Positions 6,969 through 63,583 are shown, counted from the stretch's first letter. The stretch: 64,000 nucleotides of DNA from Candidatus Poribacteria bacterium (GCA_963665235.2 CAXXLX010000002.1:224001-288000); one strand, 5' to 3'. The notes: generated by a model not told the origin, from the sequence alone. Numbers and translations: made by a program.

Positions 6969-7068
6969 CAATTAGCAATTAGCATTTGGCATTTGGCAAG
7001 AGGTTGGGATGCTAAGCAGGTTTTTGACACGCGTTAGAGACTTCTGGTTTCCATAAGCCAACATGCTA

Positions 7069-22786: not shown

Positions 22787-23200
22787 TAGTCGCGTGCACA
22801 GCACGCTCCTACAGAAGAATTCGGAATAATAGATAATGAGTCTCAATAGTCGCGTGCACAGCACGCTCCTACAGAAGAATTCGGAATAATAGATAATGAG
22901 TCTCAATAGTCGCGTGCACAGCACGCTCCTACAGAAGAATTCGGAACAGATAATGAGTCTCAATAGTCGCGTGCACAGCACGCTCCTACAGAAGAATTCG
23001 GAACAGATAATGAGTCTCAATAGTCGCGTGCACAGCACGCTCCTACAGAAGAATTCGGAATAATAGATAATGAGTCTCAATAGTCGCGTGCACAGCACGC
23101 TCCTACAGAAGAATTCGGAATAATAGATAATGAGTCTCAATAGTCGCGTGCACAGCACGCTCCTACAGAAGAATTCGGAATAATAGATAATGAGTCTCAA
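22787..23200. repeat. Tandem repeat, 7 units (5 x 60 bp, 2 x 57 bp), each a REP hairpin plus GATAATGAGTCTCAA
   Basis: Unit TAGTCGCGTGCACAGCACGCTCCTACAGAAGAATTCGGAATAATAGATAATGAGTCTCAA; no variable spacers. Confidence 0.95.
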
Positions 23201-23355
23201 TATCATATTTTATAATGGATAATGAGTCTCAATATCAATTATGAAAAAGTTGCAACATAAATTGGCATTTATTCGTCTATATATACAAGGGGAAATATTA
23301 TTTTCTATCTATGCTAGATTTTTACAAATTATTTTTGCTACAAAGGAGAAACGAA

Positions 23356-25889: not shown

Positions 25890-26390
25890 CTAGCGAGTTT
25901 TCGCCTTATAGGCATCGGCGTAGATTTCAACATACTCAGGTGATTTTCCGAGGAGCCGCTCAGGCGGCGGATGGGACTGAGAACGATAAATCCCACTGAG
26001 TGGCACTAAGACACCTGCTGCAAAACCAATGCAACCTCCCACGACTGCTCCTTGACTGATGTCGTCAAATGGCATCAATCCTGATGGGGCTGAGGGATCT
26101 CTAGGCGCGATAAAGTTCCCGATAACGCATCCAGCAAGACCACCAATTGCTCCTCCAATACATAAAGTACCCACATCAGCACCAAGCCGCAAACGTTCAT
26201 TGATATAGCGATTCACGTCTTGTCCAGCAGCAAATTTAGCCTCAAATCTCATAGCACTTGTATCTTGTGCCGCAACAGTTTTGGCTGCAACCCGCCCGGA
26301 ATTCTGCTGAGCGTAGGTGGCAAATAGCAGGCTGAAAGTTAACACTGCTATACAAAAAACCAAAACAGGAAATGTCATATCTCTTTTCAT
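25890..26390 (-). CDS. Hypothetical membrane protein with glycine-zipper-like segments, possibly prematurely stopped
   Basis: AAGGAG RBS before MKRDMTF, signal-like N-terminus. The frame stays open for 27 codons past the TAG. Confidence 0.55.
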   Translation of the reverse strand: MKRDMTFPVLVFCIAVLTFSLLFATYAQQNSGRVAAKTVAAQDTSAMRFEAKFAAGQDVNRYINERLRLGADVGTLCIGGAIGGLAGCVIGNFIAPRDPSAPSGLMPFDDISQGAVVGGCIGFAAGVLVPLSGIYRSQSHPPPERLLGKSPEYVEIYADAYKAKTR

Positions 26391-26889
26391 CGAATTTCTC
26401 CTTCTTATGTTTGGCAATTCCGTTCAAACGGGAAAGCACATGGATATGTAATCAAATCCATACTTCGCTTTTCGCCTCGAGAAAAAGATCTTCAGAATGC
26501 CCTACAACGCATTTTAAAAGATGTCCCTGTGTATGAGGTCAAGGATAAATTTCTAATGGGTTATTGACAATTAGCAATTAGCATTTGGCAAGAGGGGTGT
26601 TGGAACAATATAACCGTTCCTATCCTTCCAAGCGAAAGTATCGCGAACTTGGACAGCACTGCTCTATTTTTCATTTTTTAAAGTATACTCGATTTCACAA
26701 AAAAAATCAACCTATCGTGAACTTTTGAGTGTGTTGTCTGAATGCACGTCGCATTTGGGCGAGTACGCCGCAAATCGCTGATTTTCGCGGAGGACGCGGA
26801 TTACGCGGATTTTAAGAGGTTTGGGCATCACGGTTTTGTGATTAAGGGTGTTGCGTCTTTTTTGTCTGAAGACATCAAGGACTTTGAAA

Positions 26890-28044
26890 TCATTTTGGCG
26901 GAGGAAGCTTTCCTATTTTGACTAAGCCTGTAAAAAAGAATTCAAAGTTTTTGAAAAGCTTCTTAATTGCTGCAATAGCTGTATTGCTGCTCCGCGCGTC
27001 GGGACGCATCCCACAGTGGGCAAGGTCATTTCGAGTCCCATTACAAGCACTCCAAAGTTTGTCCAAAGGGAGTTTGGATTTTGCAGCAAATCGCGTGTTT
27101 AGCGCATGCTCAGCCTCCGCTCGCTGCGGAAGATCCAATAAATTGGGGGATGTTCGATGTATTTGAAGAAGCTCCCAAGACACTAACCATTCGCGAATCA
27201 AGGTTATAGCATGGAGATAGTGTAGGTTATCAATATACCACTTGATTTGCACATACTGCCCTGTGAGGCTTTCTCGTGGACTTAATGCCGGATCCCCCAC
27301 ACTGATTCCTGCATAGGTGTCCTTTACTTGATCTACCAAAATGTGAAATGGGGCCTCGAGTCTGTCCAAAGTTTCTGGACGTTCTAGCCTTCTAATAAGT
27401 CTTGGCACTGCTTCTTGTGCTTCAAGGGTTCGATTTGTAAGAAGTGCATCCGACAAAGTCGTGAGCTCCCGACGAATAGTGCTTACACCCCCCAACCCGG
27501 CGAGTTGCCGCGCATCTCCCGAGTGCTGGAAGACATTAACAGCATTCGTCCAATTCAACAGATCTACAAAAGGCGTTAAGTCGAAAATCGGGGTCTCATT
27601 TTTAGAGGTATCCCGTGCTTCATACGCACCATAAATAATATGCTTAAGTTCGACATCTTTAACTTGGCGCAAGTAAGCCGAAACGATGAAAACGAGTAAG
27701 GGGATAGAACGGAACGCATGCGTAATATCAAGGATAATTTCGTCCTTGAGTTCGACAGTCTTTGCACATACATCAAAAATTTCCCACAGTTCCTCTGGTG
27801 AGTTACCATTTTGAATCTCCTGTGTACAAAAGTTGCTGATGTCTTCTTCGAGACCCTCTATAACTTTGGCCTTAGCTGATTTCACTTTTGGGGTAACAAA
27901 CGCTATGATTTTATCTGGTTCATAAAGTTCCGCTACGGCTTTAGGAAATAGATCTGTCTTACAAGTCTTACAAGGATCATCATGCTTGACATAGGTCGTT
28001 TCATCATAGTTTCCAAGACCTATAAAAGTAAGTGCCTTTAACAT
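26890..28044 (-). CDS. csx1: Csx1/TM1812-family CARF-HEPN ribonuclease
   Basis: TFIGLGNY, DITHAFRS (DxTHG-like), YGAYEA..FDLT, HEPN motif RNDLAH. Confidence 0.88.
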   Translation of the reverse strand: MLKALTFIGLGNYDETTYVKHDDPCKTCKTDLFPKAVAELYEPDKIIAFVTPKVKSAKAKVIEGLEEDISNFCTQEIQNGNSPEELWEIFDVCAKTVELKDEIILDITHAFRSIPLLVFIVSAYLRQVKDVELKHIIYGAYEARDTSKNETPIFDLTPFVDLLNWTNAVNVFQHSGDARQLAGLGGVSTIRRELTTLSDALLTNRTLEAQEAVPRLIRRLERPETLDRLEAPFHILVDQVKDTYAGISVGDPALSPRESLTGQYVQIKWYIDNLHYLHAITLIREWLVSWELLQIHRTSPNLLDLPQRAEAEHALNTRFAAKSKLPLDKLWSACNGTRNDLAHCGMRPDARSSNTAIAAIKKLFKNFEFFFTGLVKIGKLPPPK

Positions 28045-28233
28045 TCTGTGTCTCCTTCAGTTAAGGGTTGTGATTCACATCGATAAAACTCAAAATCGTC
28101 TATTGGTATTGGCAATTAGCATTTAGCATTTTTGGCAATTGGCAAGAAGTCTCTGACGCGGGTCAAAAACCTGCTTAGAAGCACAACCTCTTGCTATTCG
28201 CCTCTTTGCTATTTGCCATTCGCCAATTAGCAA

Positions 28234-28596
28234 TTAGTCATTAGCCCCTTTGAGCCTTTTCAGTAAAGCATTTAGCATCTTCTTTAGACTGATGATTGTA
28301 GCGTCCAAATCGGCATATTGTGCCGCATCTAGGTATTCGAGGTCGTGTGCAAGCAGGATAAGATAGTCCGTTTCACTTGTAGAACCCATTGCTATCTGAA
28401 GAAAACGCTTGAATTCAGCTTCGCTGCCTCTTCCACAACCTTCGGCGATGTTTGTTGGTATCGATGCGCTTGCACGGCGAAGTTGATGCGTCAAGCCATA
28501 TATTTCTGTTCGAGGAAATTGAGTTGTTAGCGCGTAGATTCTTAAAGTTAGCTCATGTGCTTTTTCCCAAACTTGTAGTTGCCTAAAATCCCGCAT
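28234..28596 (-). CDS. Four-helix-bundle protein (23S rRNA IVS protein / Avd-like family)
   Basis: LQVWEKAHEL..FP..E.YGL..QLRRASASIPTNIAEG.GR family signature. Confidence 0.92.
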   Translation of the reverse strand: MRDFRQLQVWEKAHELTLRIYALTTQFPRTEIYGLTHQLRRASASIPTNIAEGCGRGSEAEFKRFLQIAMGSTSETDYLILLAHDLEYLDAAQYADLDATIISLKKMLNALLKRLKGAND

Positions 28597-28654
28597 ATTT
28601 CTTACCTATTTGATTATTGCAAATCTATTGGTAATTGACTATTTGAATCAGTTG

Positions 28655-30218
28655 TTTTCTTGCTAATTGCCATTCGCCATTTGCCATTCGCCATTTCGCA
28701 TTCCCTTCAAACGGGAAAGCACATGTGTCATTGGCTATTAGCTGTTAGCAATTAGCAGTTGGCAAGAGGTTTTGTTGTAACAATCTACCCGTTCCTATCA
28801 TTCCAAGCCAAAGTATCGCGAACTTGGACAGCACACGACTGTTTGCCAGGAGCTTCCTCTTGCTATTCGCCATTTGCCATTTGCCATTTCCCATTCCGTT
28901 CAAACGGGAAAGGACATGTGGTATTGGCAGTTGGCAGTTAGCAATTGGCTATTGGCAAGAGGGGGTGTTGTCACAATCTAACCGTTGTTAGCATTCCAAC
29001 TATAATCGAACCGATACGGAATGTTCGGGACGCAATGTCACAATCTAACCGTTGTTAGCATTCCAAGCCAAAGTAACGCGAACTTTTACAACACACGCCT
29101 GTTTGCTAGGCGCGTTCTCTTGCTATTTGCTAATCGCCATTTGCCATTCGCCATTTCGCATTCCGTTCAAACGGGAAAGGACATGTGGTATTGGCAGTTG
29201 GCAGTTTAGCAATTGGCAAGTTGGCAAGAGGACTCTGACACCTGTCAAAAACTTGCTTAGAAACACAACATCTTGCTATTCACATCTTGGCTATTTCCTA
29301 AAGTGGCTGTTGGAAACTGTTCGCTATTCGCAACCGTGGGCAAGAGGTCTCTGACGCACGTCAAAAACCTGCTTAGAAACACAACATCTTGCTAATCGCC
29401 ATTTGCCATTCGCCATTCGCCATTTCGCATTCCCTTCAAACGGGAAAGCACATGTGTCATTGGCTATTGGCTGTTGGCTATTGGCTGTTGGCAAGAAGGC
29501 TCTGGCGCAGGTCAAAAAATCGCTTAGCATCACAACATCTTGTTGTTGTTCGCCTCTTTGCTCTTTGCTAAAGTGACTGTTGGGAACCGTGGGCAAGAGG
29601 GCTCTGGCGCAGGTCAAAAACCTGCTTAGCATCACAACATCTTGCTAATCGCCATTTGCTAATCGCCATTCGCCATTTCGCATTCCCTTCAAACGGGAAA
29701 GCACATGTGTCATTGGCTATTGGCTGTTGGCTATTGGCTGTTGGCAAGAAGGCTCTGGCGCAGGTCAAAAAATCGCTTAGCATCACAACATCTTGTTGTT
29801 GTTCGCCTCTTTGCTCTTTGCTAAAGTGACTGTTGGGAACCGTGGGCAAGAGGGCTCTGGCGCAGGTCAAAAACCTGCTTAGCATCACAACATCTTGCTA
29901 ATCGCCATTTGCTAATCGCCATTCGCCATTTCGCATTCCCTTCAAACGGGAAAGCACATGTGTCATTGGCTATTGGCTGTTGGCTATTGGCTGTTGGCAA
30001 GAAGGCTCTGGCGCAGGTCAAAAAATCGCTTAGCATCACAACATCTTGTTGTTGTTCGCCTCTTTGCTCTTTGCTAAAGTGACTGTTGGGAACCGTGGGC
30101 AAGAGGGCTCTGGCGCAGGTCAAAAACCTGCTTAGCATCACAACATCTTGCTAATCGCCATTTGCTAATCGCCATTCGCCATTTCGCATTCCCTTCAAAC
30201 GGGAAAGCACATGTGCAC
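28655..30218 (-). repeat. Degenerate array tail: 7 truncated CRISPR repeat cores separated by heptamer-repeat elements
   Basis: Cores ATTCC(C/G)TTCAAACGGGAAAG(C/G)ACATGTG at ~28700, 28893, 29160, 29429, 29682, 29935 and 30188. The last three intervals are 253 bp each. Confidence 0.9.
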
Positions 30219-33200
30219 GTATCATGGCCGGGGGCGAAAGAGGGGGGGAGAAATTTGTTTCAATTCCCTTCAAACGGGAAAGCACATGTGCACGCACTAC
30301 TCCTGGCACTGGTGGTTGCTGCTTCCTGTGTTTCAATTCCCTTCAAACGGGAAAGCACATGTGCACGAAAATGATTACTACTATTTTTTTCACGCTGTTA
30401 AGTTTCAATTCCCTTCAAACGGGAAAGCACATGTGCACGAAGTCATCATCCAGAACGATGTAATCGTCAGTGGTGAGTTTCAATTCCCTTCAAACGGGAA
30501 AGCACATGTGCACCTCAACTTGATTACAATGGTCGCACTGCTGGCAACGTTTCAATTCCCTTCAAACGGGAAAGCACATGTGCACCCTTCGTGAATCCGG
30601 ACTGAAGTTGATCAAGATGCTGGTTTCAATTCCCTTCAAACGGGAAAGCACATGTGCACGAATTACAGATACGGAAATTGCCAAGCGGATTTACAAGTTT
30701 CAATTCCCTTCAAACGGGAAAGCACATGTGCACGAAAGGATAAAGTAATGTTGAATTTAAAAGGAATAACAGTTTCAATTCCCTTCAAACGGGAAAGCAC
30801 ATGTGCACTTGAGATGGCAGAAAAAGGCCTAAAGGATGACATGAGTTTCAATTCCCTTCAAACGGGAAAGCACATGTGCACAAAGCTCAAAAGCAGCTTG
30901 AAAAAGAGCTTGAGGCCCTGGTTTCAATTCCCTTCAAACGGGAAAGCACATGTGCACGCTTGAAAAAGAGCTTGAGGCCCTGATGGCTGAAGAAGGTTTC
31001 AATTCCCTTCAAACGGGAAAGCACATGTGCACGAAGCAACCGTTCTGATCTCAAGAACCAGTACAAAGGTTTCAATTCCCTTCAAACGGGAAAGCACATG
31101 TGCACCGGGATGTGGATACATTTTACGATGTGTTATTAAATAGTGTTTCAATTCCCTTCAAACGGGAAAGCACATGTGCACTCGAGAAAAACGTCGTAAA
31201 GCTGCTTTAGAGGCCGAGTTTCAATTCCCTTCAAACGGGAAAGCACATGTGCACATTTCATAAACCAGGCATGGACCTTCACAGGCACAGCAGTTTCAAT
31301 TCCCTTCAAACGGGAAAGCACATGTGCACTGTTGAAAAAAGCTTTCACAATCGCAACATTAACTGGTTTCAATTCCCTTCAAACGGGAAAGCACATGTGC
31401 ACGAAAAATTGGGTTGTTTGTGTATTTTTGTTTTTTGGGCACGTTTCAATTCCCTTCAAACGGGAAAGCACATGTGCACAAATAGATAAAACAAGGAGGC
31501 GAATTCTGCTTGTTATAGTTTCAATTCCCTTCAAACGGGAAAGCACATGTGCACGAAATTTAAAAATTTGGCTACTTTGGTATTGATTTGTTTCAATTCC
31601 CTTCAAACGGGAAAGCACATGTGCACCGCTTTTGTTTTCGTTTTTGTTTTCGCTTTCGTCAGTTTCAATTCCCTTCAAACGGGAAAGCACATGTGCACTT
31701 GTTTAAGTAGTTTAGAGGTTGGCAAGTCTCAACGGTTTCAATTCCCTTCAAACGGGAAAGCACATGTGCACAACGATGGTTCCCTTGCAAGGAATTATAA
31801 CCGCGAGTTTCAATTCCCTTCAAACGGGAAAGCACATGTGCACAAATCGCGGCACGATGGAGAACAGGTACAAAGATTTAAGTTTCAATTCCCTTCAAAC
31901 GGGAAAGCACATGTGCACAGCTGCTAGATGCCACTGAGGAATTGGCGGAGGCGGGTTTCAATTCCCTTCAAACGGGAAAGCACATGTGCACACTTTCCAA
32001 AATGCTCAGCAGCGAGGAAGTAACGACAAGTTTCAATTCCCTTCAAACGGGAAAGCACATGTGCACTGCTGCAAAATAAGGAGTCAATAAAATGACACGT
32101 AAAGTTTCAATTCCCTTCAAACGGGAAAGCACATGTGCACGAAACGATCTCACGCCCGAGGAATCACTAAAGGCTTTAGAGTTTCAATTCCCTTCAAACG
32201 GGAAAGCACATGTGCACGGTCGGTTCCGCGGCTGCGTTTTTCCTTTACAGGAAGTGTTTCAATTCCCTTCAAACGGGAAAGCACATGTGCACGAGAAGGC
32301 AACGGTTGCCGGACTAAAATCATATCTCCGAGAAGTTTCAATTCCCTTCAAACGGGAAAGCACATGTGCACCTATTGGCTTTCGCTTTCATGGCTTTCGC
32401 AGCTCCCAGTTTCAATTCCCTTCAAACGGGAAAGCACATGTGCACGAAAATTCTTATAGACTGCTCGTCCTATGATTATGATGTTTCAATTCCCTTCAAA
32501 CGGGAAAGCACATGTGCACAAGGGTATTGGATCTCCGCAACGTTGCTAATGAGAGTTTCAATTCCCTTCAAACGGGAAAGCACATGTGCACGCACGAAGC
32601 ACGGAATAATTTCCTCTACGACATGGAGCTCTGTTTCAATTCCCTTCAAACGGGAAAGCACATGTGCACAACAGTTGGTCTATTCGTTGCCTGATTCGTG
32701 GGTTAGTTTCAATTCCCTTCAAACGGGAAAGCACATGTGCACAAACAGGCTTCTCAAAAGTTAGAACAAGAAAAGGAGCTGTTTCAATTCCCTTCAAACG
32801 GGAAAGCACATGTGCACTAGGAGGAGAAGGAGGTGGAGTATAATGGCGTTAATAGCGTTTCAATTCCCTTCAAACGGGAAAGCACATGTGCACCGACAAC
32901 ATGAAGCAGATGGTTGCTTTTTACCGTGACATGTTTCAATTCCCTTCAAACGGGAAAGCACATGTGCACGCTCCTGTATGGACCAGGAAACTGAATCGTT
33001 CTTTCTTGTTTCAATTCCCTTCAAACGGGAAAGCACATGTGCACCAATTAACTAAACTAATGGGGTCTCTGTACCCCGAGGAGTTTCAATTCCCTTCAAA
33101 CGGGAAAGCACATGTGCACGAGGACTTATGTCCAAGTCCAAAACTTATTTCGGCTTGTTTCAATTCCCTTCAAACGGGAAAGCACATGTGCACTGCATCA

Positions 33201-33493
33201 GATCCAATGGTTGGTGAACGTGCAAGTAGATGTTTCAATTCCCTTCAAACGGGAAAGCACATGTGCACCAAGACCCTCAAAAAAGGTTTGGAGGCAAAAG
33301 AAGTTTCAATTCCCTTCAAACGGGAAAGCACATGTGCACGTAACTATAAACTTCATAACGCATATGGCTTTAAGGAGGTTAAGTTTCAATTCCCTTCAAA
33401 CGGGAAAGCACATGTGCACACATTACGAGCGTATGGAGTATACCGACAGGTATATTGTTTCAATTCCCTTCAAACGGGAAAGCACATGTGCAC
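30188..33493 (-). CRISPR. CRISPR array: 44 full 37-bp repeats plus one truncated terminal repeat, 44 spacers of about 34-43 nt
   Basis: Minus-strand repeat GTGCACATGTGCTTTCCCGTTTGAAGGGAATTGAAAC with canonical ATTGAAAC 3' end and a TTCCC/GGGAA stem. Leader faces cas1. Counted by eye. Confidence 0.98.
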
Positions 33494-33790
33494 TTACCCT
33501 ATTTTCGACCCACTCCACGCTTGACTCCGGAACCCCTGATTCAAACGCGAACTGCGCGGGGCTTTTTTTTACTCAAAAATTGGAGCGAAAATCGCCTAAA
33601 CCCTTATGAATACTGACTCAAACGCGATTTTTACCGAAAAACACGAGAGAATTCAGTCACCGTATAGGTTTATGGGCTATTTCATCAAGCGATTCAGCTC
33701 AAGGTCGAATCGCGTTTGTTTTACGTTATTAAGTATACCACAGATTTGCATAAATGTCAAATTTTTTTTGCGATTTTTTTCAAAAAAACG
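33494..33790 (-). promoter_or_regulatory. CRISPR leader with sigma70 promoter
   Basis: Minus strand TTGACA (33760-33755) N17 TATACT (33737-33732); AT-rich. Confidence 0.75.
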
Positions 33791-34062
33791 AAAATTTCGT
33801 AATTTTAGCGGATAAATGCGGAGGGGGGTGGAAGAGGGGAAGGGGGAAGGATGGAAGAGGTCATAACATGCAGTCAGATGGATAGCAATCGTGCGCGTGG
33901 GTGGAAGGATGGAAGAGGGGAAAGGAGGCAAGATGGAAAGATGAAAGAAGCATCCAAAACGACATCGCAGCCGGAGATGCAAAAAAGAAGGGGGAAGGAT
34001 GGAAGAGGAGAGGTGGGGGACAGATGTCCCCCACGTAGCGGGTCTAAAGTTTCACTAAATCT

Positions 34063-35049
34063 CTAAAGGAGAAACGGTTTGTATGCTGGCTCTTCGCCTG
34101 TAATTACGCGTGCCAGATGACGTGCCTGAAGTTCAATACAACGTAGGTAGGTCGTTTTCTCATTTCGTGCGGTGTCTTGGAAGGTCTGTTGCATCCGCCC
34201 GTAATAACCGACGAGAAAACGATCGAGTGCCTCCTTGGTGAATCGGATCCCTTTGGTTGTCTCTTCAAAGTCCTCCGGTTGCACCCGGTTGTTGTTGACG
34301 AGCGATAGCACATAGCCATCTACGATAATCTGTCGGAACTCCTCCATCAGATCGGAGGCTAATGTGGCATGCCCGTGTTTGGGTTGATGAAAATAACCGC
34401 AGTATGGATCGAATCCGACGACGTTGCTGAAGGCATACACGTGGTTGTATAGGAGCGTGTAGCCGAGTGAGAGCATGGCGTTAATCGGATCGGGGGGTGG
34501 TCGAAACTGCCGTGTTGTAAACTTCCAATCGTTTGAGAGAAATTGTCGGAAGGCACGGTAATATGCGGCGGTGCCTGCGCCTTCATATCCGAGCAGGGAT
34601 TCCAAATTTTGCGCTCCCTCAAGATTTTGGAGCGGCTTCTGAATTCCGCTGATGGCGGATTCGATTTCTGCGTTTTGCGTTCGTTGCCGTTTGCAGAAAC
34701 GGATTGCGTTTTTCAGCTTGCCACGCACAAATCCTTTTGCGAGTTCAAGACACTGCTGCGGATCGGCTGCTACGGTGTATTGACGTTGCCGGATGAGGAC
34801 ATCTCTGGCGTAGCCGGGTTGAAGTCTCCCTTTGTATGTGCCCCGTGAAGAGAGGAACGATACGGGAATGCCTTTGTTGAGTAAGTATCCCATCGTTTGT
34901 GTTGTGAGGTGACCGTTGCCGAAGATGATGACTTCGTCTAGTTGCACAATCGGGATTTCCTGAAGCACTTCGCGATTTTTTTTGACGATGACCTGGTTAC
35001 CAGATTTGTGAAGAACAGCTCCCTGTTGTGTGATGTAAAGAATTGCCAT
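34063..35049 (-). CDS. cas1: Cas1
   Basis: LYITQQG, LLGYEG..A..YY, RPPPDPINAMLSLGY, HQP..GH.TLASDLMEEFR. Confidence 0.97.
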   Translation of the reverse strand: MAILYITQQGAVLHKSGNQVIVKKNREVLQEIPIVQLDEVIIFGNGHLTTQTMGYLLNKGIPVSFLSSRGTYKGRLQPGYARDVLIRQRQYTVAADPQQCLELAKGFVRGKLKNAIRFCKRQRTQNAEIESAISGIQKPLQNLEGAQNLESLLGYEGAGTAAYYRAFRQFLSNDWKFTTRQFRPPPDPINAMLSLGYTLLYNHVYAFSNVVGFDPYCGYFHQPKHGHATLASDLMEEFRQIIVDGYVLSLVNNNRVQPEDFEETTKGIRFTKEALDRFLVGYYGRMQQTFQDTARNEKTTYLRCIELQARHLARVITGEEPAYKPFLL

Positions 35050-35081
35050 TTTATGCCTCCTATGGCGCGATTTTTGATATT

Positions 35082-35508
35082 ATACCATTTTTATTAATTA
35101 TTCTATCATTACCGGTTGTTAGAAATGAAACGGAGAACGGAAGACACAAACTATAAGTTTATGCTACTACAAAGACGCACAAACTGGAAGTTTATGCTAC
35201 TACAAAGACGCACAAACTGGAAGTTTATGCTACTACAAAGACGCACAAACTGGAAGTTTATGCTACTACAAAGACGCACAAACTATAAGTTTATGCTACT
35301 ACAAAGACGCACAAACTGGAAGTTTATGCTACTACAAAGACGCACAAACTGGAAGTTTATGCTACTACAAAGACGCACAAACTATAAGTTTATGCTACTA
35401 CAAAGACGCACAAACTGGAAGTTTATGCTACTACAAAGACGCACAAACTGGAAGTTTATGCTACTACAAAGACGCACAAACTGGAAGTTTATGCTACTAC
35501 AAAGACGC
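35082..35508. repeat. MITE family B left end followed by 11 x 33-bp REP tandem
   Basis: ATACCATTTTTATTAATT..GGAAGAC head identical to 61499 and 63466. Unit ACAAACT(GG/AT)AAGTTTATGCTACTACAAAGACGC spans 35146-35508. Confidence 0.9.
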
Positions 35509-35526
35509 AAATTTAACAGGACCATC

Positions 35527-35681
35527 GTAGGGGCGAGGTCGCCTCGCCCGCTAGGTCTGCCTCTAACTCCCATTAGCATAAGGGTTTATCAAAGCACTGC
35601 GTCCATCCTGATTATAGTAGAGCCTGTAATTATTTGGCACACACGGCGGGATCCGCACGGGCTGGGTGACCCAGCCCCTAC
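35527..35681. repeat. Inverted pair of GTAG REP hairpins (REPIN-like)
   Basis: GTAGGGGCGAGGTCGCCTCGCCC ... GGGCTGGGTGACCCAGCCCCTAC. Confidence 0.7.
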
Positions 35682-35714
35682 GAGTGTGTCGTGTGGGATC
35701 CCGGCCGAGTGCCA

Positions 35715-37151
35715 TTAAGCCTTTGTTTTCTGTGTGTCCCGTTTTTTGAAACGGCCGCCAAGCTGCGTAGCAATATTTTTCCCACGCTGGGCGGCATGTT
35801 GCACGGGCCGCGCGACTTGTGCTGCACCCCGTTTTAAGGCGTGTTGTACCTGGTTCTGCAAGATTTTCGCTTGCGAGTCGGGGACAGGTTGGTAACAACC
35901 ATCCTTGTCGAAGACGTGTCCGAGGAATTCTACGCTGTCATCGAAACGTGCGATTTGCGTCTTTTTAGGGTTCAATCCTAACTTGAGTGTCGCCAGCCGT
36001 TTTTGTGTTTGCTGTAGTGCATGTCGTGCGCGGCGTTCATTTCTGGTTAGGATGAGCAGGTCGTCTGCGTATCGCACAAGCCGTATACCTGCCCGCGTCA
36101 TCGCCTTGTCGAAGGGGTGCAGGTAGATGTTGGCTAACAAGGGTGAAAGCGGTGAACCCTGTATAATGCCGATTTTGCGTGGGCGACTCAGACGCTCCTT
36201 GACGATACCGCCCACAGTAGGTGCGGCAAGTGTTGCTACGACAAGCGGTGCAGCGAAGAGTAGGTGTTTTGCCGTGAGCCCCATCCATATCCGTTTTGAA
36301 TTTGCAAGGAGTAGTAATACCCCGTCTCGTCCTAAGTTTATTAATGCCTCCTTATTTGCATGAGACCAGAGTCCGTTATCTTTTACACGTTCCAGTTCGT
36401 CAATTTCCCAGGAATCTTCGGGCGGTATGGGTTGCATATCGCCGTATTCATCGGCATAATAGACGTTTTCAGGTGGTGTGCTAAGTCCTGAGCCGCGTTG
36501 CAGGATTTGGCTCATGACCCGTTCGACCCCCGCGCCTAAGCAGTGGGCGGTGTTTTCAATATGGGTGCTCCATGTCGGAAGCTTGGGCGGTTGTAAGATG
36601 CCTCCCATATCCAGCCACATCTGAATGAGGCGTAAGATTGCTGGCTCTTTCAGTGATGCCCGCAGAAAACGCATGAGAATTTGTGTGTCCATTCTGTCAA
36701 AGAAGTTCTCAATGTCCGCGTGAACGACCCATTCGTATCCCTCCGCTCGGATGGCGTTTACCTGGGCAACTGCATGGGGTACGCCGCGATTGGGACGGTA
36801 TGCGAAGCTGCACTCCAGGAATTTTGCCTCGTAAATCGGGGTGATGAGGTCGCAAACGGCACGTTGAACAATCCGATCTTTTAATGTCAGCACAGCGAGT
36901 TCGCGTGGGGTGCCGTTTGACTTCTTAATGATGAACTTCCGAAGTGGAAGCGGGTAATACCGTTCTTCAGCCAGCTCACGCGAGAGTTGACGGAGATGTT
37001 TCGCAAGGTTCGCCTCAAACTGTTGAATGGTAACGCCATCGCTACCGGGCCCTCCTTTGTTGCTTCGCACTTTTCGCCACGCGGCATGTAGGGTTTCGGG
37101 TTGACAGAGTTGTGTTGTGAGTGAATTATTTGGTGATGTGTAATCAAACAT
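35715..37151 (-). CDS. CRISPR-associated group II intron-like reverse transcriptase (stand-alone, with internal insertion)
   Basis: AWRKVRSNKGGPGSDG, RELAV..DRIVQ, SFAYRP, ADIENFFD, QGSPLSPLLANIYL, RYADD, FLG; lies between cas2 and cas1. Confidence 0.93.
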   Translation of the reverse strand: MFDYTSPNNSLTTQLCQPETLHAAWRKVRSNKGGPGSDGVTIQQFEANLAKHLRQLSRELAEERYYPLPLRKFIIKKSNGTPRELAVLTLKDRIVQRAVCDLITPIYEAKFLECSFAYRPNRGVPHAVAQVNAIRAEGYEWVVHADIENFFDRMDTQILMRFLRASLKEPAILRLIQMWLDMGGILQPPKLPTWSTHIENTAHCLGAGVERVMSQILQRGSGLSTPPENVYYADEYGDMQPIPPEDSWEIDELERVKDNGLWSHANKEALINLGRDGVLLLLANSKRIWMGLTAKHLLFAAPLVVATLAAPTVGGIVKERLSRPRKIGIIQGSPLSPLLANIYLHPFDKAMTRAGIRLVRYADDLLILTRNERRARHALQQTQKRLATLKLGLNPKKTQIARFDDSVEFLGHVFDKDGCYQPVPDSQAKILQNQVQHALKRGAAQVARPVQHAAQRGKNIATQLGGRFKKRDTQKTKA

Positions 37152-37264
37152 TTAGAATTCTCCTTTTAGGTGGGTTAAACGATTTGTAGCACAAACCTTT
37201 AGTTTGCGTCTTTTGATGCACAAACTAAATGAAGTTTAAATAACGTGATTTTGAAAAGAAGTTT

Positions 37265-37680
37265 CTTTAGTCCCGTAGGGACGATATCTTTATAGAAGCA
37301 GACGTTCCCCCCCCCCATTCTTAGTCCCATAGGGACGATATCTTTATAGAAGCAGACGTTTCCGCCCCAACTCTTAGTCCCAGTATTCGGGCAAGCAGCC
37401 CGCTCTTTAAGGACGATATCTTTATAGGGGTTAGTGCAAACCGACATTTATTATCAAGCTCACGTTATAATTACTTGGACACTTTTACAATATTGGAAAC
37501 TATCAGCAGCAAAGTCGTGCTCGGAAGATTGTTCTTACGGAAGAAAATCGTGTTGAAACCGATTGTATAGAGTCTGCAAGCAGTGAAAAGGATAGTAAAA
37601 TTTTTCAGATTTTACCGATCAACCGATTGTATAGAGTCTGCAAGCAATGAAAAGGATAGTAAAATTTTTCAGATTTTTTT
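37265..37680. repeat. Short repeat cluster upstream of the RT
   Basis: CTTAGTCCC(G/A)TAGGGACGATATCTTTATAG-like unit x3 (related copies at ~61215-61300) and a ~60-bp direct duplication at 37557/37621. Confidence 0.75.
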
Positions 37681-37830
37681 TGAGGAGGGGGGATATATAG
37701 TAGACTTTAGAATTAATCGGACATTATGTTCGGACACAAGCATTCGGTGTTGATCGGATGCCTATGCTGTAGCACAAACTGGAAGTATGTGGCCGCATCC
37801 GCACAAACTGGAAGTATGTGCTACAATCTG

Positions 37831-39288
37831 CTACGGTGTGCTGAGCCCTGCATCAATTATCTGCAGCAATAACCGCTTACGGGTATGTTGTTCTCGGAGG
37901 TCTGCGAAATAAACACGCCACTGCTCTTCTTGACCAAGGTGCTGATAGAGTGCCCTTAATTCTATTAAATATGCCGAAACTTTCTCGTAAGCTTCACGTT
38001 TTCGGAAAAGCGCGGTCTGTTCAATAAGACTTTGATAGAGCAAAATGGCGGTATCGGGATAGTGTTGACCAAGAAGTGTGAGCAGCCGTTCGGTGAAATC
38101 TGGGATACGTTTGACAATTGGGCCCTGCAAAAGGGACGCGTATTCGGCAACGGATAGGGGGAATTCTTCAACTGCTTTCCATGCTGCATCGTCGCGCTGC
38201 TGTGTGAACAGCGCGTGTATCAACCGATACCCCTCCTTTTCACGTAGGGCAAGCTGGAGGTAATCTTCAGTTCGCTCATCGCGAAAATATAGGGCAAGTA
38301 AAAGTTGAACGTGTGCCTGTCGCTCGGGGCTTTCATCGAGACGTTGTTCAATTGTTGTGTGTAAATCTGATGGATTTTGCATTGCACAGAGCTGTTCAAG
38401 GTGGTGTGTGAGGATAGGTGTGAATACCGGTGCTGCTTCAAAACTGAGTGACAGCAGCAGGCGGCAGTGTTCAGACAAGGTCTCAGGTGTAGCCCCGGTG
38501 TTTTTGAAACCTACTGACATCGGCTCTTGCGTGTTGAGGACAATGCGCGTGAACTGCTTTGTGCATTTTTTAACAAATCGGGGCAATTCATTCCGCTGGA
38601 GCGTGTCAGGATAATGCACAATTGATTGGTGTATGAGAGCATGGAGGAGGGCGAGCGCGAATTCCGTTTCGCCTACCTGTGCAAGTGATTCGGCATGCAT
38701 GAGGAGCTCTTCAAGTTGAGCTAACACCTGTTGAAGTTGATGTTGTTCCAGAAAGCTGTCTCCAAAAATGGTGTTGAGCTGTTCTCGGTAAGCCGTAACG
38801 AGTGGAATCGGGTCAGTTTGAGGGGGTGTATCCGGAATATCTGTCCATCCCTGCACTACACGTGCCAATGCTGGCCTTCGCTTGAGCATCTCCATAATGA
38901 TGTGCAAAAGCTGTTCCTTCGGTTTTTTCGCAAGCGTAGCAAGCAGGGTGTCGACAGAACAGAGCACCTCCGGCGCGTGAATGTAGGTCAACAGCAGTGC
39001 GACGATATGCTTACAATCTCCTTCACCGCCGTAAGGACATGAACAGGACGCGGCGGCAATCCCTGTGGGTATCAATTCCACAGACACCTTATACGGTTTC
39101 GGATATGTCCCGCGGCATGTTGCTGACAACGTATAGCCGTGGAGTACCGGGTTGCCAATTGCGCCATCGTGGAAGTATTCCAGGCCGCGTGTGAAACTCC
39201 GTTCTGTGCAGCGGTGTTTTATCTGAGCGTAGGTAAGGTGAGGACTTTGCATATCAAACCACGATTGTCTTGGGCTCTGATGTGACAT
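37831..39288 (-). CDS. SWIM zinc-finger domain protein with helical C-terminus
   Basis: SFTRGLEYF, CSCPYGGEGDCKHIVALLL (CxC..CxH); overlaps the cas2 3' end. Confidence 0.85.
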   Translation of the reverse strand: MSHQSPRQSWFDMQSPHLTYAQIKHRCTERSFTRGLEYFHDGAIGNPVLHGYTLSATCRGTYPKPYKVSVELIPTGIAAASCSCPYGGEGDCKHIVALLLTYIHAPEVLCSVDTLLATLAKKPKEQLLHIIMEMLKRRPALARVVQGWTDIPDTPPQTDPIPLVTAYREQLNTIFGDSFLEQHQLQQVLAQLEELLMHAESLAQVGETEFALALLHALIHQSIVHYPDTLQRNELPRFVKKCTKQFTRIVLNTQEPMSVGFKNTGATPETLSEHCRLLLSLSFEAAPVFTPILTHHLEQLCAMQNPSDLHTTIEQRLDESPERQAHVQLLLALYFRDERTEDYLQLALREKEGYRLIHALFTQQRDDAAWKAVEEFPLSVAEYASLLQGPIVKRIPDFTERLLTLLGQHYPDTAILLYQSLIEQTALFRKREAYEKVSAYLIELRALYQHLGQEEQWRVYFADLREQHTRKRLLLQIIDAGLSTP

Positions 39289-39529
39289 CCCCCACAGCAG
39301 GCACTTCGACCCGTCCTACACAAGCATTACAGAGTGCATAGTAGCGAACTGAATCCTTATCAGGGTCTATGATGTTCACAACGGCGCGTTTCATTTGATC
39401 AAATTGGGAATGGGTGAGATGCGCTTCAAAGACGCTGTACTGGACGCGGGTGCCGAACCCTTTGAGTGTTTTGGCGAGTTGGGTGCGCCGCTGGTCGTCC
39501 GGAATGTCGTAAGAGATTACATAGAACAC
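39254..39529 (-). CDS. cas2: Cas2
   Basis: YVISYDIPDD.RR, GTRVQYSVFE, DSVRYY. GTG start after a GGAGG RBS. Confidence 0.95.
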   Translation of the reverse strand: MFYVISYDIPDDQRRTQLAKTLKGFGTRVQYSVFEAHLTHSQFDQMKRAVVNIIDPDKDSVRYYALCNACVGRVEVPAVGDVTSEPKTIVV

Positions 39530-39610
39530 CGAATTTATCCTCCGTAGTAGCACAAACTTCCTAGTTTATGGCATGTAGCACAAGCTTCCTAGTTTGTGAC
39601 ATAAGGAGAC

Positions 39611-40579
39611 CTAAGGAAACACCCCGACGATGTGGTACTGTCCATATCCGAATGCTGTATGATGCCCGATATGTAGATATTTGCCGAGAACGATTAGCGG
39701 AAGGAAGGGTTTTATGTCCCCCTCAAAACGAATCTTGCCTCTGAATCCACTCATCGGAACTGATGTCTCCTGCCGATAAGAATATCTATCTCGCGGTAAC
39801 CACTGCAAACCGGAGGTATGCCTGACACCGCTGGCTTCCTTGATTAGGGCGGGTGCGTCTACGTCCAAATCCTCGCCGCAGTGACATAAACTCAAGAAAC
39901 GGATACGCCGGAGCAGGTTGCGGATGAGATGTTCAAACGTCAGATTGCTTGTCCAGCGTCCGTTGACCTTTATGCTGGTGGGGGTGAGAAAATCAAGTTC
40001 AAGTTCATCTGTAATGTGAGGTGCAACTCGTCCCACGTCATCAAGTCCGAGCAGGAGTCCATCGTCTGTCAGCATCTGATCCGTTGCGGTGTAGATTGTG
40101 TGACCCGGCTCTTCATCGGACGCGGGTAGGCTTTCGACTGTTTCCAGTAAACACCGCCCGCGCTGGTCTTTAAGTCCGATTCGTTGGATGCCCATCCTGT
40201 GGAAGGTAAATACCATCCATGGGAGTACCGCTATCGCCTCTCCGATGAGGATCAGATTACACTTGAAGGTGTCGCCTGGAGCGTATCGGACTTTGCCGGT
40301 ACGGGGTGGTTCAAGTACGAACGGATGTGGTGCGTACGTCTGTCCTCGGAGGACAGGACTGTCCTGCGGCACTGGCGTTTCAAAGCATCTGGAGTAGACG
40401 CATTGGTCCGGAAAGTGACACTGGTTTTCGCACTGCTGTTCGGTGCCGATGCAGACGGTGTGCCGGAGGACGTATCCAAATCTGCCTCTGAAGATGTTGC
40501 CTTTGTAGGCTGGCATCTTCAGGGGCTCTTGGACGGTGTATGTGAAGCGGTAACGCGCGAAGCGGAAGTTTTTGAGCAT
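39611..40579 (-). CDS. cas6: Cas6 crRNA processing endoribonuclease
   Basis: FRGRFG, PHPFVLEP, FLTPT, G-rich loop HIGHHTAFGYG. Start inferred at MLKNF (the ORF track starts at 40678). Confidence 0.88.
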   Translation of the reverse strand: MLKNFRFARYRFTYTVQEPLKMPAYKGNIFRGRFGYVLRHTVCIGTEQQCENQCHFPDQCVYSRCFETPVPQDSPVLRGQTYAPHPFVLEPPRTGKVRYAPGDTFKCNLILIGEAIAVLPWMVFTFHRMGIQRIGLKDQRGRCLLETVESLPASDEEPGHTIYTATDQMLTDDGLLLGLDDVGRVAPHITDELELDFLTPTSIKVNGRWTSNLTFEHLIRNLLRRIRFLSLCHCGEDLDVDAPALIKEASGVRHTSGLQWLPRDRYSYRQETSVPMSGFRGKIRFEGDIKPFLPLIVLGKYLHIGHHTAFGYGQYHIVGVFP

Positions 40580-40595
40580 GGGGGTTGTTGGTTCA

Positions 40596-41336
40596 TTACG
40601 CATCAGCGTTAGTCTTGGTTGCTTCAGCATCCGCATCCGAGTTAGGACATGTTGTTTCCGCGGGTTCCGACTCTGCACAAAGTAGGTCAGTAGACGGTAT
40701 TAAGGGCGTTTTGTCTGATTTGCGTACGAGTGCCACAAGGGCAGCATCAACAATACCTGCTAAATGGTATTTGGGGTCATAGTCTACTACTTGTTTGAGT
40801 TCTAGCCGTAGGGGCAAGTTCTTTTCTGCCAATTTTACATCCTTCAACGGTGGTATCCAGATTTCTGCTCCTCGGTCTTCTCGCAATTTTACCCAGCGTG
40901 TCTGTGTGCATTTAACGTCGGTACCCCACAAGGCGTGGTATTCTGTTAGAGCCTCTCTCTTTTTCCGAGACTTTTCTGGATTGTCCTGATCGTTTTCATT
41001 ACAACCGATCCAAACGTGCTTTTCGTCTTCGACATCAAATTCCAGCAGGCGTGCATAATGTTTGCCATCCCAATCTCGCCAGACGTGCCATTCGCCTTTC
41101 TCACCGAAAAGACGGAGATCGCTCACCAGTTCCCAATCCGGTTTCCATTTTGATTCTTTTTCCGATTCTGATTCTTTATATGGGGGCCAGCAGATGTCGT
41201 TTGGGGATACTACGCCAAAGCCGATAAACCCTGGTTCTTGCACCAAAACCCATGCTAAATCTTTTTCGGTAACATTGGACAGATGGCCACAAACCCATGA
41301 TTCATTGAGTTCTTCTATATGCGTTTTATTCGGCAT
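40596..41336 (-). CDS. csx19: Csx19 (TIGR03984-like) type III-D subunit
   Basis: DLRLFGEKGEWHVWR and LWGT motifs plus operon position. Start inferred at MPNKTH. Confidence 0.75.
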   Translation of the reverse strand: MPNKTHIEELNESWVCGHLSNVTEKDLAWVLVQEPGFIGFGVVSPNDICWPPYKESESEKESKWKPDWELVSDLRLFGEKGEWHVWRDWDGKHYARLLEFDVEDEKHVWIGCNENDQDNPEKSRKKREALTEYHALWGTDVKCTQTRWVKLREDRGAEIWIPPLKDVKLAEKNLPLRLELKQVVDYDPKYHLAGIVDAALVALVRKSDKTPLIPSTDLLCAESEPAETTCPNSDADAEATKTNADA

Positions 41337-42840
41337 CGGAATCCTCCTTGTCATTCTTCTTAGGTCGCCGTGATCCTTTAGGACGATCGGTATAGCTCTG
41401 CGCTGCATCGACACAGCATTGGAGAAAACCGGCATCACCATTTTCAACCGTCATGCGTTTGTCTTCGTCTTTTTTCAATTTCCATTCCCTTGTATTAGAT
41501 GGATCGGGGTCATCTTTATATATCAATTTTGCTGCGATACCTCGGAGTGTGCCGCGTCCGTTGCTTGTCTCCCCACCGAGAGCGGCATGTCCATACCAGA
41601 AATCCCGCAATGTCAACAGCAGTAAACCGATCTCCGCGTCGCCCGGTTCCTCCAACGTGAGTATTAACCGAAGATTGGATGCCGATTCTTTTTCAGCGAT
41701 TTCATCGAGACTAATCGGATAAACAGGCTTTTCGTTAAATAGGGCACCATCCAAGCTGCCACCAGTAAAGCGATCGATAGCAACACGATCTTGCCACTGA
41801 TATCGCACATTTTTCACTAGCTGCTCCTCAATCCTAACTCGACTTGCACGCGCATCCGGTTCCTGGTTCTTATCACCTTTTTCATAGACGTAACCAAACA
41901 TTTTGTCAACTGATTTCTCTGACCAACCAATAGTTTTCGCGATTAAGGTAGCACGATGGCGGAATGCACCGCCAAAGGAAGTTCCAGGAACAACGGGCTC
42001 TCCATCGGACTGTAGGTGTATCATGTCTGGGTCATCTGGATTTCCAGAGGAACTACGGATTAGCAGGGAGGTACACAGCTCAAAGTTAGCTTCAATACGG
42101 AAGTATCGTCGGTAATCGGATGGCAATGAGCGTATTTCTAAAGAGCTCGGGTCTCGAGACCAAGGATCGTCTCGGAGCCATGACATGACATCCTCCGGGT
42201 TGTTCATTTGCAAATCGCGTATTTGCCAAGTGCCTACTTTACCGCAACCATAACCGCGACGGGTGCGCGCACCTAATCGGATATTCCCATCCTGAAATCC
42301 GTGCAGAAGTGCCAAAAACAGTGCTGTTAAATCATAGTTCTTGTCCCCTTCACGAATCACACATTCCAGATTCAGTTCAAACTCGGTACCACGTTCAACA
42401 ACTTCTACATCAAACTTTGCTTTGTCCGCAGCGGATCCTGATTGTTTGTCCACGCGGACACCGTCTCGAGTTGATGTCGTCGCTTGCATACAGTGAGCAT
42501 CAGCAACTGTCAGAGCACTCATCGGGTCGGACTTCTCCACGGTATCTGCTTTTTCTGACCCACCGAAAAATCTTTTGAATTCTGATGATTCTTTGGTATG
42601 TCCTCCTTGATATTGCTTCCACGGTAAACTCTGGTGAGCGAGAAAGCTCCGTGCAGCACCAGTAATGGAGGCCCCAGGGATAAAAGGTTTCCCGGCTTCA
42701 TCCCTCAAGAGACACATATCTGCTATTCCAGTTTCGTCGCCGCCAAAGTGTGCTACACTCTCTAGTTTCCATGTCCCACGCGCATATAAGCGGCGGACAA
42801 CAGCATCATCCATAGGTTTTATGGTTGTTGTATTTGCCAT
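41326..42840 (-). CDS. cas7: Cas7-Cas7 (Csm3-like double RAMP)
   Basis: Two RAMP units: IPGASITG..LGARTRRGYG and VPGTSFGG..IDRFTGG..LGGETSNGRG. Confidence 0.88.
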   Translation of the reverse strand: MANTTTIKPMDDAVVRRLYARGTWKLESVAHFGGDETGIADMCLLRDEAGKPFIPGASITGAARSFLAHQSLPWKQYQGGHTKESSEFKRFFGGSEKADTVEKSDPMSALTVADAHCMQATTSTRDGVRVDKQSGSAADKAKFDVEVVERGTEFELNLECVIREGDKNYDLTALFLALLHGFQDGNIRLGARTRRGYGCGKVGTWQIRDLQMNNPEDVMSWLRDDPWSRDPSSLEIRSLPSDYRRYFRIEANFELCTSLLIRSSSGNPDDPDMIHLQSDGEPVVPGTSFGGAFRHRATLIAKTIGWSEKSVDKMFGYVYEKGDKNQEPDARASRVRIEEQLVKNVRYQWQDRVAIDRFTGGSLDGALFNEKPVYPISLDEIAEKESASNLRLILTLEEPGDAEIGLLLLTLRDFWYGHAALGGETSNGRGTLRGIAAKLIYKDDPDPSNTREWKLKKDEDKRMTVENGDAGFLQCCVDAAQSYTDRPKGSRRPKKNDKEDSDAE

Positions 42841-42875
42841 TACATTGTTTCCTATCTTTTTCTTTATTCTTTAGC

Positions 42876-61194: not shown

Positions 61195-61498
61195 TGTACA
61201 AGTTGTTCAGTATTAGCTCAGTATGGGCGATATGTTTATAGAAGCCGAGACCGTCCGCACACCTTAGTCCCATCGGGACGATATGTTTATAGAAGCCGAG
61301 ACCGCTCCGCTAGTACATTTCTGGTAGCAAGAAGTCTCTAACGCGTGTCAAAAATCTGCTTAGCATCACAAACTCCTGCCAATCGCCAGGATAATGAACG
61401 CAGTTCATTAAATCCTCCGAAATAGCCAATCGCTAATCGCCAATAAGCTAATTGCCAATACTATTTTTTATGAAGAAAAATGAAACAGTTCGCAACTA

Positions 61499-61724
61499 AT
61501 ACCATTTTTATTAATTATTCTATCATTACCGGTTGTTAGAAATGAAACGGAGAACGGAAGACCCAAACTAAAAGTTTATGCTACTAGAAAGCACGCAAAC
61601 TGGAAGTTTATGCTACTGGAAGTTTATGCTACAACAAAGCACAAACTGGAAGTTTATGCTACTACAAAGCACAAACTGGAAGTTTATGCTACTACAAAGA
61701 GACATTTTCAATTAGGAATGGTAT
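61499..61724. mobile_element. MITE family B with ~5 internal REP units
   Basis: Ends ATACCATT..AATGGTAT; body shared with 35082 and 63466. Confidence 0.8.
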
Positions 61725-61875
61725 AACATAACAGAAACCCAAAACATTTTTCGGAGGCAAGCGGTGCGTTTGCAACCCACCTGACCAGCCACCGATAGCG
61801 TGTGCCAAAAAGTGTAACTTATGCACCGGTTTTGTACAAAAACTTTACACACCCTGAACAACAGACAATTTTCCT

Positions 61876-63466: not shown

Positions 63467-63583
63467 TACCATTTTTATTAATTATTCTATCATTACCGGT
63501 TGTTAGAAATGAAACGGAGAACGGAAGACCCAAACTGGAAGTTTATGCTACAATAAAGAGACATTTCCAATTAGAAATGGTAT
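63466..63583. mobile_element. MITE family B minimal copy (one REP unit)
   Basis: ATACCATTTTTATTAATT..AATTAGAAATGGTAT. Confidence 0.8.

Follow-up and report, generated by a model that had tools for sequence, protein, structure and literature searches.

The CRISPR locus and its tail

The window analysed here is a 64,000-bp stretch (positions 224001-288000 of contig C2) of a Candidatus Poribacteria genome, G000, which comprises 5.31 Mb in 4 contigs with 47.6-47.9% G+C per contig and carries planctomycete-type PSD/PSCyt genes, consistent with a bacterium of that wider group; coordinates without a contig name are counted from the first letter of the window. It contains a CRISPR array that continues, at 28655-30218 on the minus strand, into a tail of seven 28-nt repeat cores. 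These cores lack the repeat handle and are separated by elements flanked by runs of 7-bp units (heptamers). At this old end of the array, spacers have been replaced by the genome's own short repeat elements with heptamer flanks, probably as a by-product of decay rather than as a new RNA device.

The array proper (30257-33493, minus strand) holds 44 repeats of 37 nt, all of them perfect, and its spacers measure 34-43 nt; it has the near-identical full-length repeats and unique spacers of ~30-45 nt expected of a CRISPR array. It is followed by the leader (33494-34062, minus strand) and by the cas genes (34063-46933, minus strand), which encode Cas1, a separate reverse transcriptase (RT) of the group-II-intron type, a SWIM-domain protein, Cas6 (39611-40678), Csx19, a Csx7-like repeat-associated mysterious protein (RAMP), Csx10 and a Cas10-like protein. 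These genes make up a type III-D-like module that includes an RT. We placed the leader at 33494-34062 and the CRISPR RNA (crRNA) on the minus strand because, in the minus sense, the repeat ends in ATTGAAAC, the 8-nt crRNA handle; because the flank at the 33.5-kb end is matched at C1:459957-460249 (91%) and C1:656938-657171 (86%), and also in relatives; and because a promoter-like TTGACA-17-TATACT at 33760-33732 is directed into the array. The repeat-proximal part of the leader, from 33494 to ~33746, is the portion conserved at these two mini-arrays of the genome, and the leader start is also found in relatives. The minus-strand position of the cas genes supports the same orientation. The tail is therefore the trailer, i.e., the oldest, leader-distal end of the array.

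None of the 44 spacers matches the genome outside the array beyond 14-20 nt, thus providing no sign of self-targeting. Two neighbouring spacers, 30882-30920 and 30958-30995, overlap by ~25 nt of one source sequence (with a common 20-mer), which suggests repeated acquisition from one target. The two mini-arrays are orphans, located at C1:459735-460249 (4 repeats) and C1:656938-657171 (1 repeat); they carry a related repeat, GTTTCCATTCCCTTCAAGCGGGAAAACACTGGGGGCAC, and their leaders are 86-91% identical to that of the window.

Using the 20-nt core sequence TTCAAACGGGAAAGCACATG with up to 3 mismatches, we obtained 52 matches in the window versus 0 expected: the 44 canonical repeats, 7 in the tail and 1 solo copy (26423). 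The tail matches start at 28706, 28899, 29166, 29435, 29688, 29941 and 30194 and belong to 28-nt cores at 28700-28727, 28893-28920, 29160-29187, 29429-29456, 29682-29709, 29935-29962 and 30188-30215. All seven cores that a preliminary description, made from the sequence of this stretch alone, had reported beyond the last normal spacer were thus located (28700-30215). The 28 nt common to them is ATTCCCTTCAAACGGGAAAGCACATGTG. The canonical GTTTCA end is changed in the tail cores to ...GCCATTTCGC, and in six of the seven the CAC end is changed to TC or GT, followed by ATTGGC heptamers. Read in the crRNA sense, the position of the handle holds ATGCGAAA in six cores and ATGGGAAA in one, in line with the altered handle described earlier, and the canonical handle is destroyed in all seven. 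The TTCCC/GGGAA stem of the repeat is retained in five of the seven cores, and the two mismatched stems already mentioned in that description correspond to the cores at 28893 and 29160, where TTCCG stands for TTCCC. With cores of 28 of the 37 nt and intervals of 165-241 bp made of repeated elements, the tail itself does not qualify as a CRISPR array.

The seventh core differs from the others. Since it keeps the GTGCAC end and has the oldest normal-length spacer on its right (30219-30256, minus strand, 38 nt, G-rich), it is the array's own terminal repeat (30188-30218, minus strand). It keeps the stem, and its distal GTTTCA end is replaced by heptamer sequence; it is thus a degenerate terminal repeat, as are the terminal repeats of relatives. 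The claim that every core is bracketed by heptamer runs therefore holds for six of the seven and fails for this one.

The core-to-core spacings are 193, 267, 269, 253, 253 and 253 bp. Tandem Repeats Finder reported a period of 253 with 3.5 copies and 98% matches at 29332-30215. The three last units (29429-30187) each consist of a core, right-type heptamers, elements A' and A, and left-type heptamers, and, when anchored at 29435, 29688 and 29941, they differ at 0 of 253 positions in the assembly, as expected from the 253-bp tandem copies previously noted.

Repeat elements in the spacer positions

Period-7 runs number 361 in the whole genome; by a strict definition, there are 284 runs (153 left-type, 131 right-type). 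Adjacent right/left pairs occur 41 times; 34 of them enclose at most 80 nt, mostly the ~52-bp element A in either orientation. Left/right pairs occur 9 times, and five of these enclose exactly a 35-nt core segment, all in the tail. The cores therefore sit between whole elements, and each tail 'spacer' is one or two complete repeat elements (right-type heptamers, A or B, left-type heptamers).

With up to 3 mismatches allowed, 89 copies of element A were counted, distributed over all 4 contigs. It is short, non-coding and dispersed, with a ~52-bp body between inverted heptamer arms in both orientations, and in these respects it is similar to MITEs (miniature transposable elements with inverted repeats). 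The tail contains eight A or A' copies (29222-30145, all on the plus strand), whose 17-nt centres start at 29244, 29360, 29511, 29613, 29764, 29866, 30017 and 30119. Elsewhere in the window, the centres lie at 7012-7028 (minus strand), 28162-28178 (plus strand) and 61347-61363 (plus strand), which are the off-array copies that had been placed at ~6990, 28140 and 61325. Many copies of element A contain an internal 12-bp palindrome, TGACGCGCGTCA (e.g., 28150-28195), which might be a protein-binding site.

Element B is represented in the tail by a 105-bp copy at 28762-28866, with ends GCAAGAGG...CCTCTTGC, and by a second copy with an internal duplication at 28955-29126. Its ends resemble those of A. 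All six high-scoring segment pairs (HSPs) of element B in the genome, corresponding to 5 elements, lie at most 165 bp from a core; B is therefore part of an old tail unit and not a free element. Outside the locus, the BLAST depth is 2-5 over the cores and B versus 30-90 over A and its heptamers, which confirms that the tail 'spacers' are filled with repeat elements. An origin of B as a relic of the leader was considered and rejected: in local alignments against three leaders on both strands, 3 of 36 tests gave p = 0.043, and the best match was the 8-mer CGCGAACT.

The heptamers next to the cores are of a particular kind. Runs of at least two GCCATTY units occur 8 times in the genome, and all 8 lie within 37 bp of a core, versus 3 of the 122 generic GCCAATY runs and 1 of the 114 GCTAATY runs near cores. 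These core-adjacent GCCATTY arms, together with the junction GCCATTTC that is also present in two relatives, speak for a junction that arose locally. Elsewhere in the genome, composites of repeats are frequently amplified in tandem, an example being the three 188-bp units at C1:3844000.

The genome has seven more CRISPR arrays, which belong to two other repeat families and have up to 117 repeats each (C2:140428-157328, C1:1688747-1696526, C1:2733933-2735333, C1:3934999-3935788). None of the seven has a heptamer run within 600 bp, and no heptamers are present at the trailers of the two related-repeat mini-arrays on C1. The idea that heptamers are general colonisers of array ends was thus rejected.

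Trailers in related Poribacteria genomes

G000 is the sole genome of its genus in our comparison set. In a first sample of 100 other genomes of the family, the core was found at up to 2 mismatches in 15, mostly in arrays of a second genus, g6. The trailers of 11 arrays, belonging to 10 genomes, were read by eye. In 9 of the 11, the terminal repeat lacks the GTTTCA end and abuts heptamer-type sequence, with a different unit type in g6 (CTGACGG and similar). In 7 of the 11, further degenerate cores follow the terminal repeat, separated by heptamer palindromes or, in genome G082, by identical 43-nt GGAAGAT-rich fillers. Hybrids of core and heptamers, for which the preliminary description had proposed a wider search, are therefore not unique to the tail: they are present in related genomes and at C1:1565598, C1:1565798 and C1:4289240.

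Periodicity was measured as the number of lag-7 matches in the 42 nt beside the outermost or handle-less core, for 14 trailers in 12 genomes. Relative to a background of random G000 42-mers, not computed per genome (mean 8.7, 95th percentile 13, 99th percentile 15), 8 of the 14 trailers scored above the 99th percentile and 11 scored at or above the 95th; the spacer flanks of internal repeats scored 4-13. Each relative has its own heptamer family, with 8-48 matches genome-wide in each of the 5 genomes searched with the g6 heptamer element. Between G000 and g6, Cas1 is 81-82% identical and TopA 78-79%. The module therefore looks vertically inherited, and its association with heptamers either old or continually renewed.

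A purine-rich motif of the GGAAGGATGGAAGA type is located at 33826-33950 in the window and also in the trailers of relatives (L003, L005, L015, L018); in G082, it forms the identical 43-nt fillers between four handle-less cores. The sequence CATTCCC was dropped as a tail-specific derived mark because some relatives, and the genome's own mini-arrays, use GTTTCCATTCCC as their regular repeat.

Copies of the core away from the tail

The core has about 11 copies, distributed over 4 loci: the tail, 26417, C1:1565598/1565798 and C1:4289240. All three C1 cores carry heptamers, and a position between left-type and right-type runs is shared by 6 tail copies and 2 C1 copies. The first C1 site (C1:1565413-1565936) is a collinear block of ~520 bp with the order B, core, B, core, A', A, and no cas gene is located near it. 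Identity between its A'-A part (C1:1565413-1565665) and 29387-29642 is 95%, and its older B units match the tail at 80-83%. A copy of the promoter-like piece of the leader adjoins the block, and eight 33-bp hairpin repeats follow it. Since all these pieces are dispersed repeats, the arrangement may be due to chance. At C1:4289240, B and left-type heptamers precede a core whose end is GGGCAC, and the DNA after this core is unique. In the window, a solo core of the TTCCG variant (26417-26442, minus strand) lies 1.7 kb past the outer edge of the tail, just upstream of a minus-strand open reading frame (ORF, 25890-26417), and a truncated element B (26588-26659; 89% identity over 73 nt) lies 146 bp from it. 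The tail may once have reached as far as this solo core.

Among the 111 other family genomes searched, 19 have 1-2 non-array cores of the CATTCC type, versus 9 in G000. Higher counts (21 and 11) were obtained in two genomes only, where a spacing of 72-80 bp identifies ordinary arrays. On these counts, amplification of the cores is a peculiarity of G000.

These copies could be taken to indicate that a core with its two heptamer arms is a small mobile unit, i.e., a CRISPR-repeat hairpin that was captured by the heptamer system and spread to new heptamer tracts. The four separate locations of the core would fit such a unit, as would the varied neighbourhoods of the cores (B|B, B|A, A|A', unique|B, B|unique), their conservation above that of their flanks, and the predicted hairpin of left heptamers, core and right heptamers, which is as stable as the common elements. 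Nevertheless, the core has only its about 11 copies versus ~89 for element A, the C1 copy is a collinear 520-bp block and not a single inserted core, and B accompanies the core in all of its HSPs, which fits block duplication. The scarcity of non-array cores in the other family genomes also speaks against a mobile unit. Additionally, there is no link to Y1 transposase genes: the genome has 13 Y1_Tnp matches, and for the 10 best of these neither heptamer runs nor element A occur within 800 bp, versus 195 of 2000 random 2-kb windows that contain a heptamer run. We therefore consider a mobile unit fairly unlikely. Given the Y1 result, we also rejected a REP-associated tyrosine transposase (RAYT) as a partner of the heptamer elements, which thus lack the RAYT association of repetitive extragenic palindromes (REP) and REP doublets forming hairpins (REPIN).

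Origin of the tail and predicted RNA structure

We propose, with a probability of roughly 60%, that the tail arose as the trailer decayed and as a family of heptamer repeats, which has long adjoined this type of array and is strongly amplified in G000, colonised it and recombined there. We observed the anatomy of the tail, the numbers of copies, those outside the locus and the same pattern recurring in relatives; the sequence of events, a mechanism through recombination and the absence of a function are what we infer. First, the terminal repeat would have lost its 8-nt handle, as terminal repeats often do. This repeat would long have been a neighbour of a palindromic element with heptamer flanks, as is seen across Poribacteria. 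Recombination between the heptamer tracts of G000, together with nested insertions of A, would then have rebuilt the stretch beyond the last real spacer, so that complete elements took the spacer positions between truncated cores. Unequal crossing-over would have amplified the units, with the three identical 253-bp copies as the latest event, and a composite piece would have been copied to two other chromosomal sites.

The part of the preliminary description that attributed the tail to a genome-wide repeat family is borne out by the run counts, the copies of element A, the BLAST depth and the arrangement of the heptamer pairs. The destroyed handle in 7 of 7 cores and the 'spacers' of 165-241 bp of repeated DNA count against a crRNA-like role, as does the missing fold of element B: RNAalifold on 6 copies gave a consensus of -1.66 kcal/mol with 9 weak pairs, which does not support a conserved structure. 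As it has neither the handle nor a guide of spacer size, the tail is no longer able to yield working crRNAs. Its hairpin is intact, however, and Cas6 may still cleave at it. What follows the cores consists of generic heptamers and A or B repeats, none of them a spacer-sized unique segment, and the tail thus lacks what a crRNA-like regulator would have.

Several observations weigh against decay and colonisation as the whole explanation. In the crRNA sense, the canonical repeat RNA folds into the TTCCC/GGGAA hairpin. The common hybrid core keeps this hairpin and lengthens it, as the GC of the new handle pairs with an upstream GC. The core also caps a long imperfect hairpin; a 111-nt unit with its arms has a predicted energy of -37.6 kcal/mol (z = -3.5), and 2 of 200 shuffled sequences were as stable. 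The extended stem, as predicted, looks less like random decay. Pairwise identity among the cores is 0.82-1.00 versus 0.48-0.83 among the neighbouring B elements, which hints at constraint on the cores or at their homogenisation by the array. On C1, the block lies directly downstream of a copy of the promoter-like piece of the leader (TTGACA-17-TACACT), which points into the block in the crRNA sense, and to judge from its sequence this layout resembles a small transcription unit. As for the relatives, the lag-7 periodicity is not raised in 3 of the 14 trailers (G090, G084 and G070-C3), and the abutting heptamers were assigned partly by eye. Finally, for the association to persist between genera whose proteins are ~80% identical, either selection or ongoing concerted evolution is needed.

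Such observations leave room for a function of the tail and of its C1 copy, in which Cas6 would cut read-through pre-crRNA at the handle-less hairpins and release non-guide RNAs. These could act as a sink or decoy for Cas6, as regulators, as a module for processing or termination at the 3' end of the array, or as an insulator ahead of the accessory genes downstream. The Cas6-type stem-loop is kept in 5 of the 7 cores and, in the predicted fold, is extended by the changed handle. The conservation of the cores, the recurrence of the association with this array type across genera, the inward promoter-like site of the C1 copy with terminator-like hairpins after it, and the position of the tail between the array and two same-strand genes, one of them a cas accessory gene, are also in keeping with a function. 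On the other side, two cores have a broken stem or, in the predicted fold of the TTCCG variants, one re-registered through the altered handle, and element B has no conserved fold. An Rfam search over 26000-34200 gave no match at E-values up to 1. The sequence after the cores is generic heptamer DNA present at >100 loci and can therefore not be aimed at a specific target. The three identical 253-bp copies look like a recent neutral duplication, and the single RNA-library run examined gave small, diverged pieces. The accessory gene was rejected as a conserved neighbour, since the protein query used had no match in 5 relatives that have tails, a result that does not show its absence. We regard a function as distinctly unlikely.

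A related possibility combines elements of these readings: a conserved Poribacteria trailer module, made of handle-less hairpins cleavable by Cas6 atop heptamer palindromes, might have escaped the array in G000 as a promoter-equipped satellite (C1:1565317-1566230) and as single copies elsewhere. We hold this to be unlikely. If true, it would be a live example of CRISPR repeats leaving arrays via a host repeat family and becoming ectopic, processable RNA elements. Should the tail be the product of decay only, it is a tidy case study and not a new mechanism.

Support from public sequencing runs

The evidence from public data comprises the assembled Logan contigs of 4 runs, from which RNA ends and levels are not readable. 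Pieces of the tail are matched exactly by contigs from three DNA runs, which belong to two studies; examples are 29177-29439 in run X1, and 28739-28889, 29079-29206, 29177-29358 and 29500-29655 in run X5. Junctions between cores and heptamers are also bridged. A record of X1 spans core 1 and both of its heptamer flanks (28665-28888, with 10 other letters of 224), and a record of X5, from the second study, spans the junction of the left heptamers with core 3 (29079-29206, with 0 other letters). The RNA-library run, X7, with 0.06 of the sampled words, gave short pieces with 4-9 other letters, which are insufficient to show transcription.

An artefact of assembly, affecting either the tail as such or the number of its 253-bp units, would be consistent with the identity of the three units over 253 bp. 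No contig covers the bin 29718-29868 in any of the 4 runs and none spans the whole tail; thus, the copy number is unchecked by contigs. Nevertheless, the exact matches described above come from independent runs, the assembly covers 5.3 Mb in only 4 contigs, the older units are not identical to one another, a diverged paralogue of them lies on another contig, and relatives share the architecture. An artefact is thus highly improbable.

Comparison with known systems

Degenerate terminal repeats and insertions of repeat elements in CRISPR arrays are known. The repeat at 30188-30218 is of this kind, keeping its leader-proximal part and the stem-loop and losing the distal 8 nt, and the tail copies furthest from the leader carry shared mutations, as in a decayed trailer. 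Unlike a simple decayed trailer, however, the tail has six more cores past the terminal repeat, separated by genome-wide elements of 165-241 bp and not by old spacers, and its units were amplified in tandem and copied to other loci.

Elhai et al. are said to have reported in 2008 that small dispersed repeats (SDR, ~21-27 nt) of Nostoc punctiforme lie inside tandem heptamer repeats. SDR within tandem heptamers are mentioned in passages of PMC3116915 and PMC2884548. The tail resembles this arrangement in form only: a unit of 20-30 nt, here a hairpin, lies within tandem heptamers, whose tracts are genome-wide and intergenic and have other short elements nested in them. The phylum, Poribacteria, is different; the unit embedded in the tail is a low-copy CRISPR repeat core, and the abundant embedded unit is the 52-bp element A.

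Element A can also be compared with MITE-like elements, REP, bacterial interspersed mosaic elements (BIME) and REPIN. It is bounded by terminal inverted repeats (GGCAAGAGG / CCTCTTGCC), is present in both orientations with a total of ~89 copies, forms long imperfect hairpins and occurs in tandem clusters. In contrast to those families, its arms are tandem heptamers and not unique inverted repeats, and Y1 transposase genes are not associated with it.

Ectopic CRISPR repeats can give rise to crRNA-like regulatory RNAs (crlRNA, CreA, CreR), and phages carry RNA anti-CRISPRs (Racr), according to 10.1101/2023.03.03.530964, PMC9458426 and PMC10651486. The tail is similar to such RNAs in having repeat hairpins outside the regular register, some of them degenerate, near cas genes, with a separate copy that has a promoter-like site. 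It differs in having neither a spacer-sized guide nor a specific partial target, in its destroyed handle, and in not being located on a phage.

In the literature searched (supplements excluded), we found neither CRISPR arrays with tails of repeat elements nor heptamer repeats of Poribacteria described. Across two genera of sponge symbionts, both uncultivated, the locus documents a specific and lasting link between one type of CRISPR array and a genome-wide heptamer family. A route by which copies of an array's repeat hairpins reach other loci is also shown, and hairpins that escaped in this manner could plausibly supply the ectopic repeats that are regarded as the origin of regulatory crRNA-like RNAs. 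Short repeats embedded in heptamers, not known to us outside cyanobacteria, also exist in Poribacteria. In practice, tails rebuilt with heptamers mislead CRISPR callers and spacer counts.

Other features of the window

Two genes on the strand of the array lie beyond the tail. The first (28234-28596, minus strand) adjoins it and encodes a four-helix-bundle protein of the 23S rRNA intervening sequence protein (IVP) / TIGR02436 / Avd-like type. The second (26890-28044, minus strand), located between the solo core and the tail, is a TIGR02221 cas_TM1812-family accessory gene with a DxTHG motif (E-value 1e-35; 123.7 bits versus a cut-off of 76.25). Another dispersed element, with an off-locus depth of 28-112, is located just downstream of the accessory gene, at 26725-26870. 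A TnpB-type (OrfB_IS605) gene is present at 14021-15229 (minus strand) and has no link to the heptamer elements.

Two further tandem repeats were identified. A 33-bp repeat (CACAAACTGGAAGTTTATGCTAC...) lies between cas1 and the RT gene (35145-35509) and also at 61496-61728, at 63463-63588 and at 9972-10216 of L001; its unit forms a 9-bp hairpin and, with an off-locus BLAST depth of 590-720, it is among the most abundant repeats of the genome. At 22787-23202, a 60-bp unit is repeated in 7 copies with 97% identity, and the genome contains many such minisatellites, which a simple CRISPR scan calls as false arrays.

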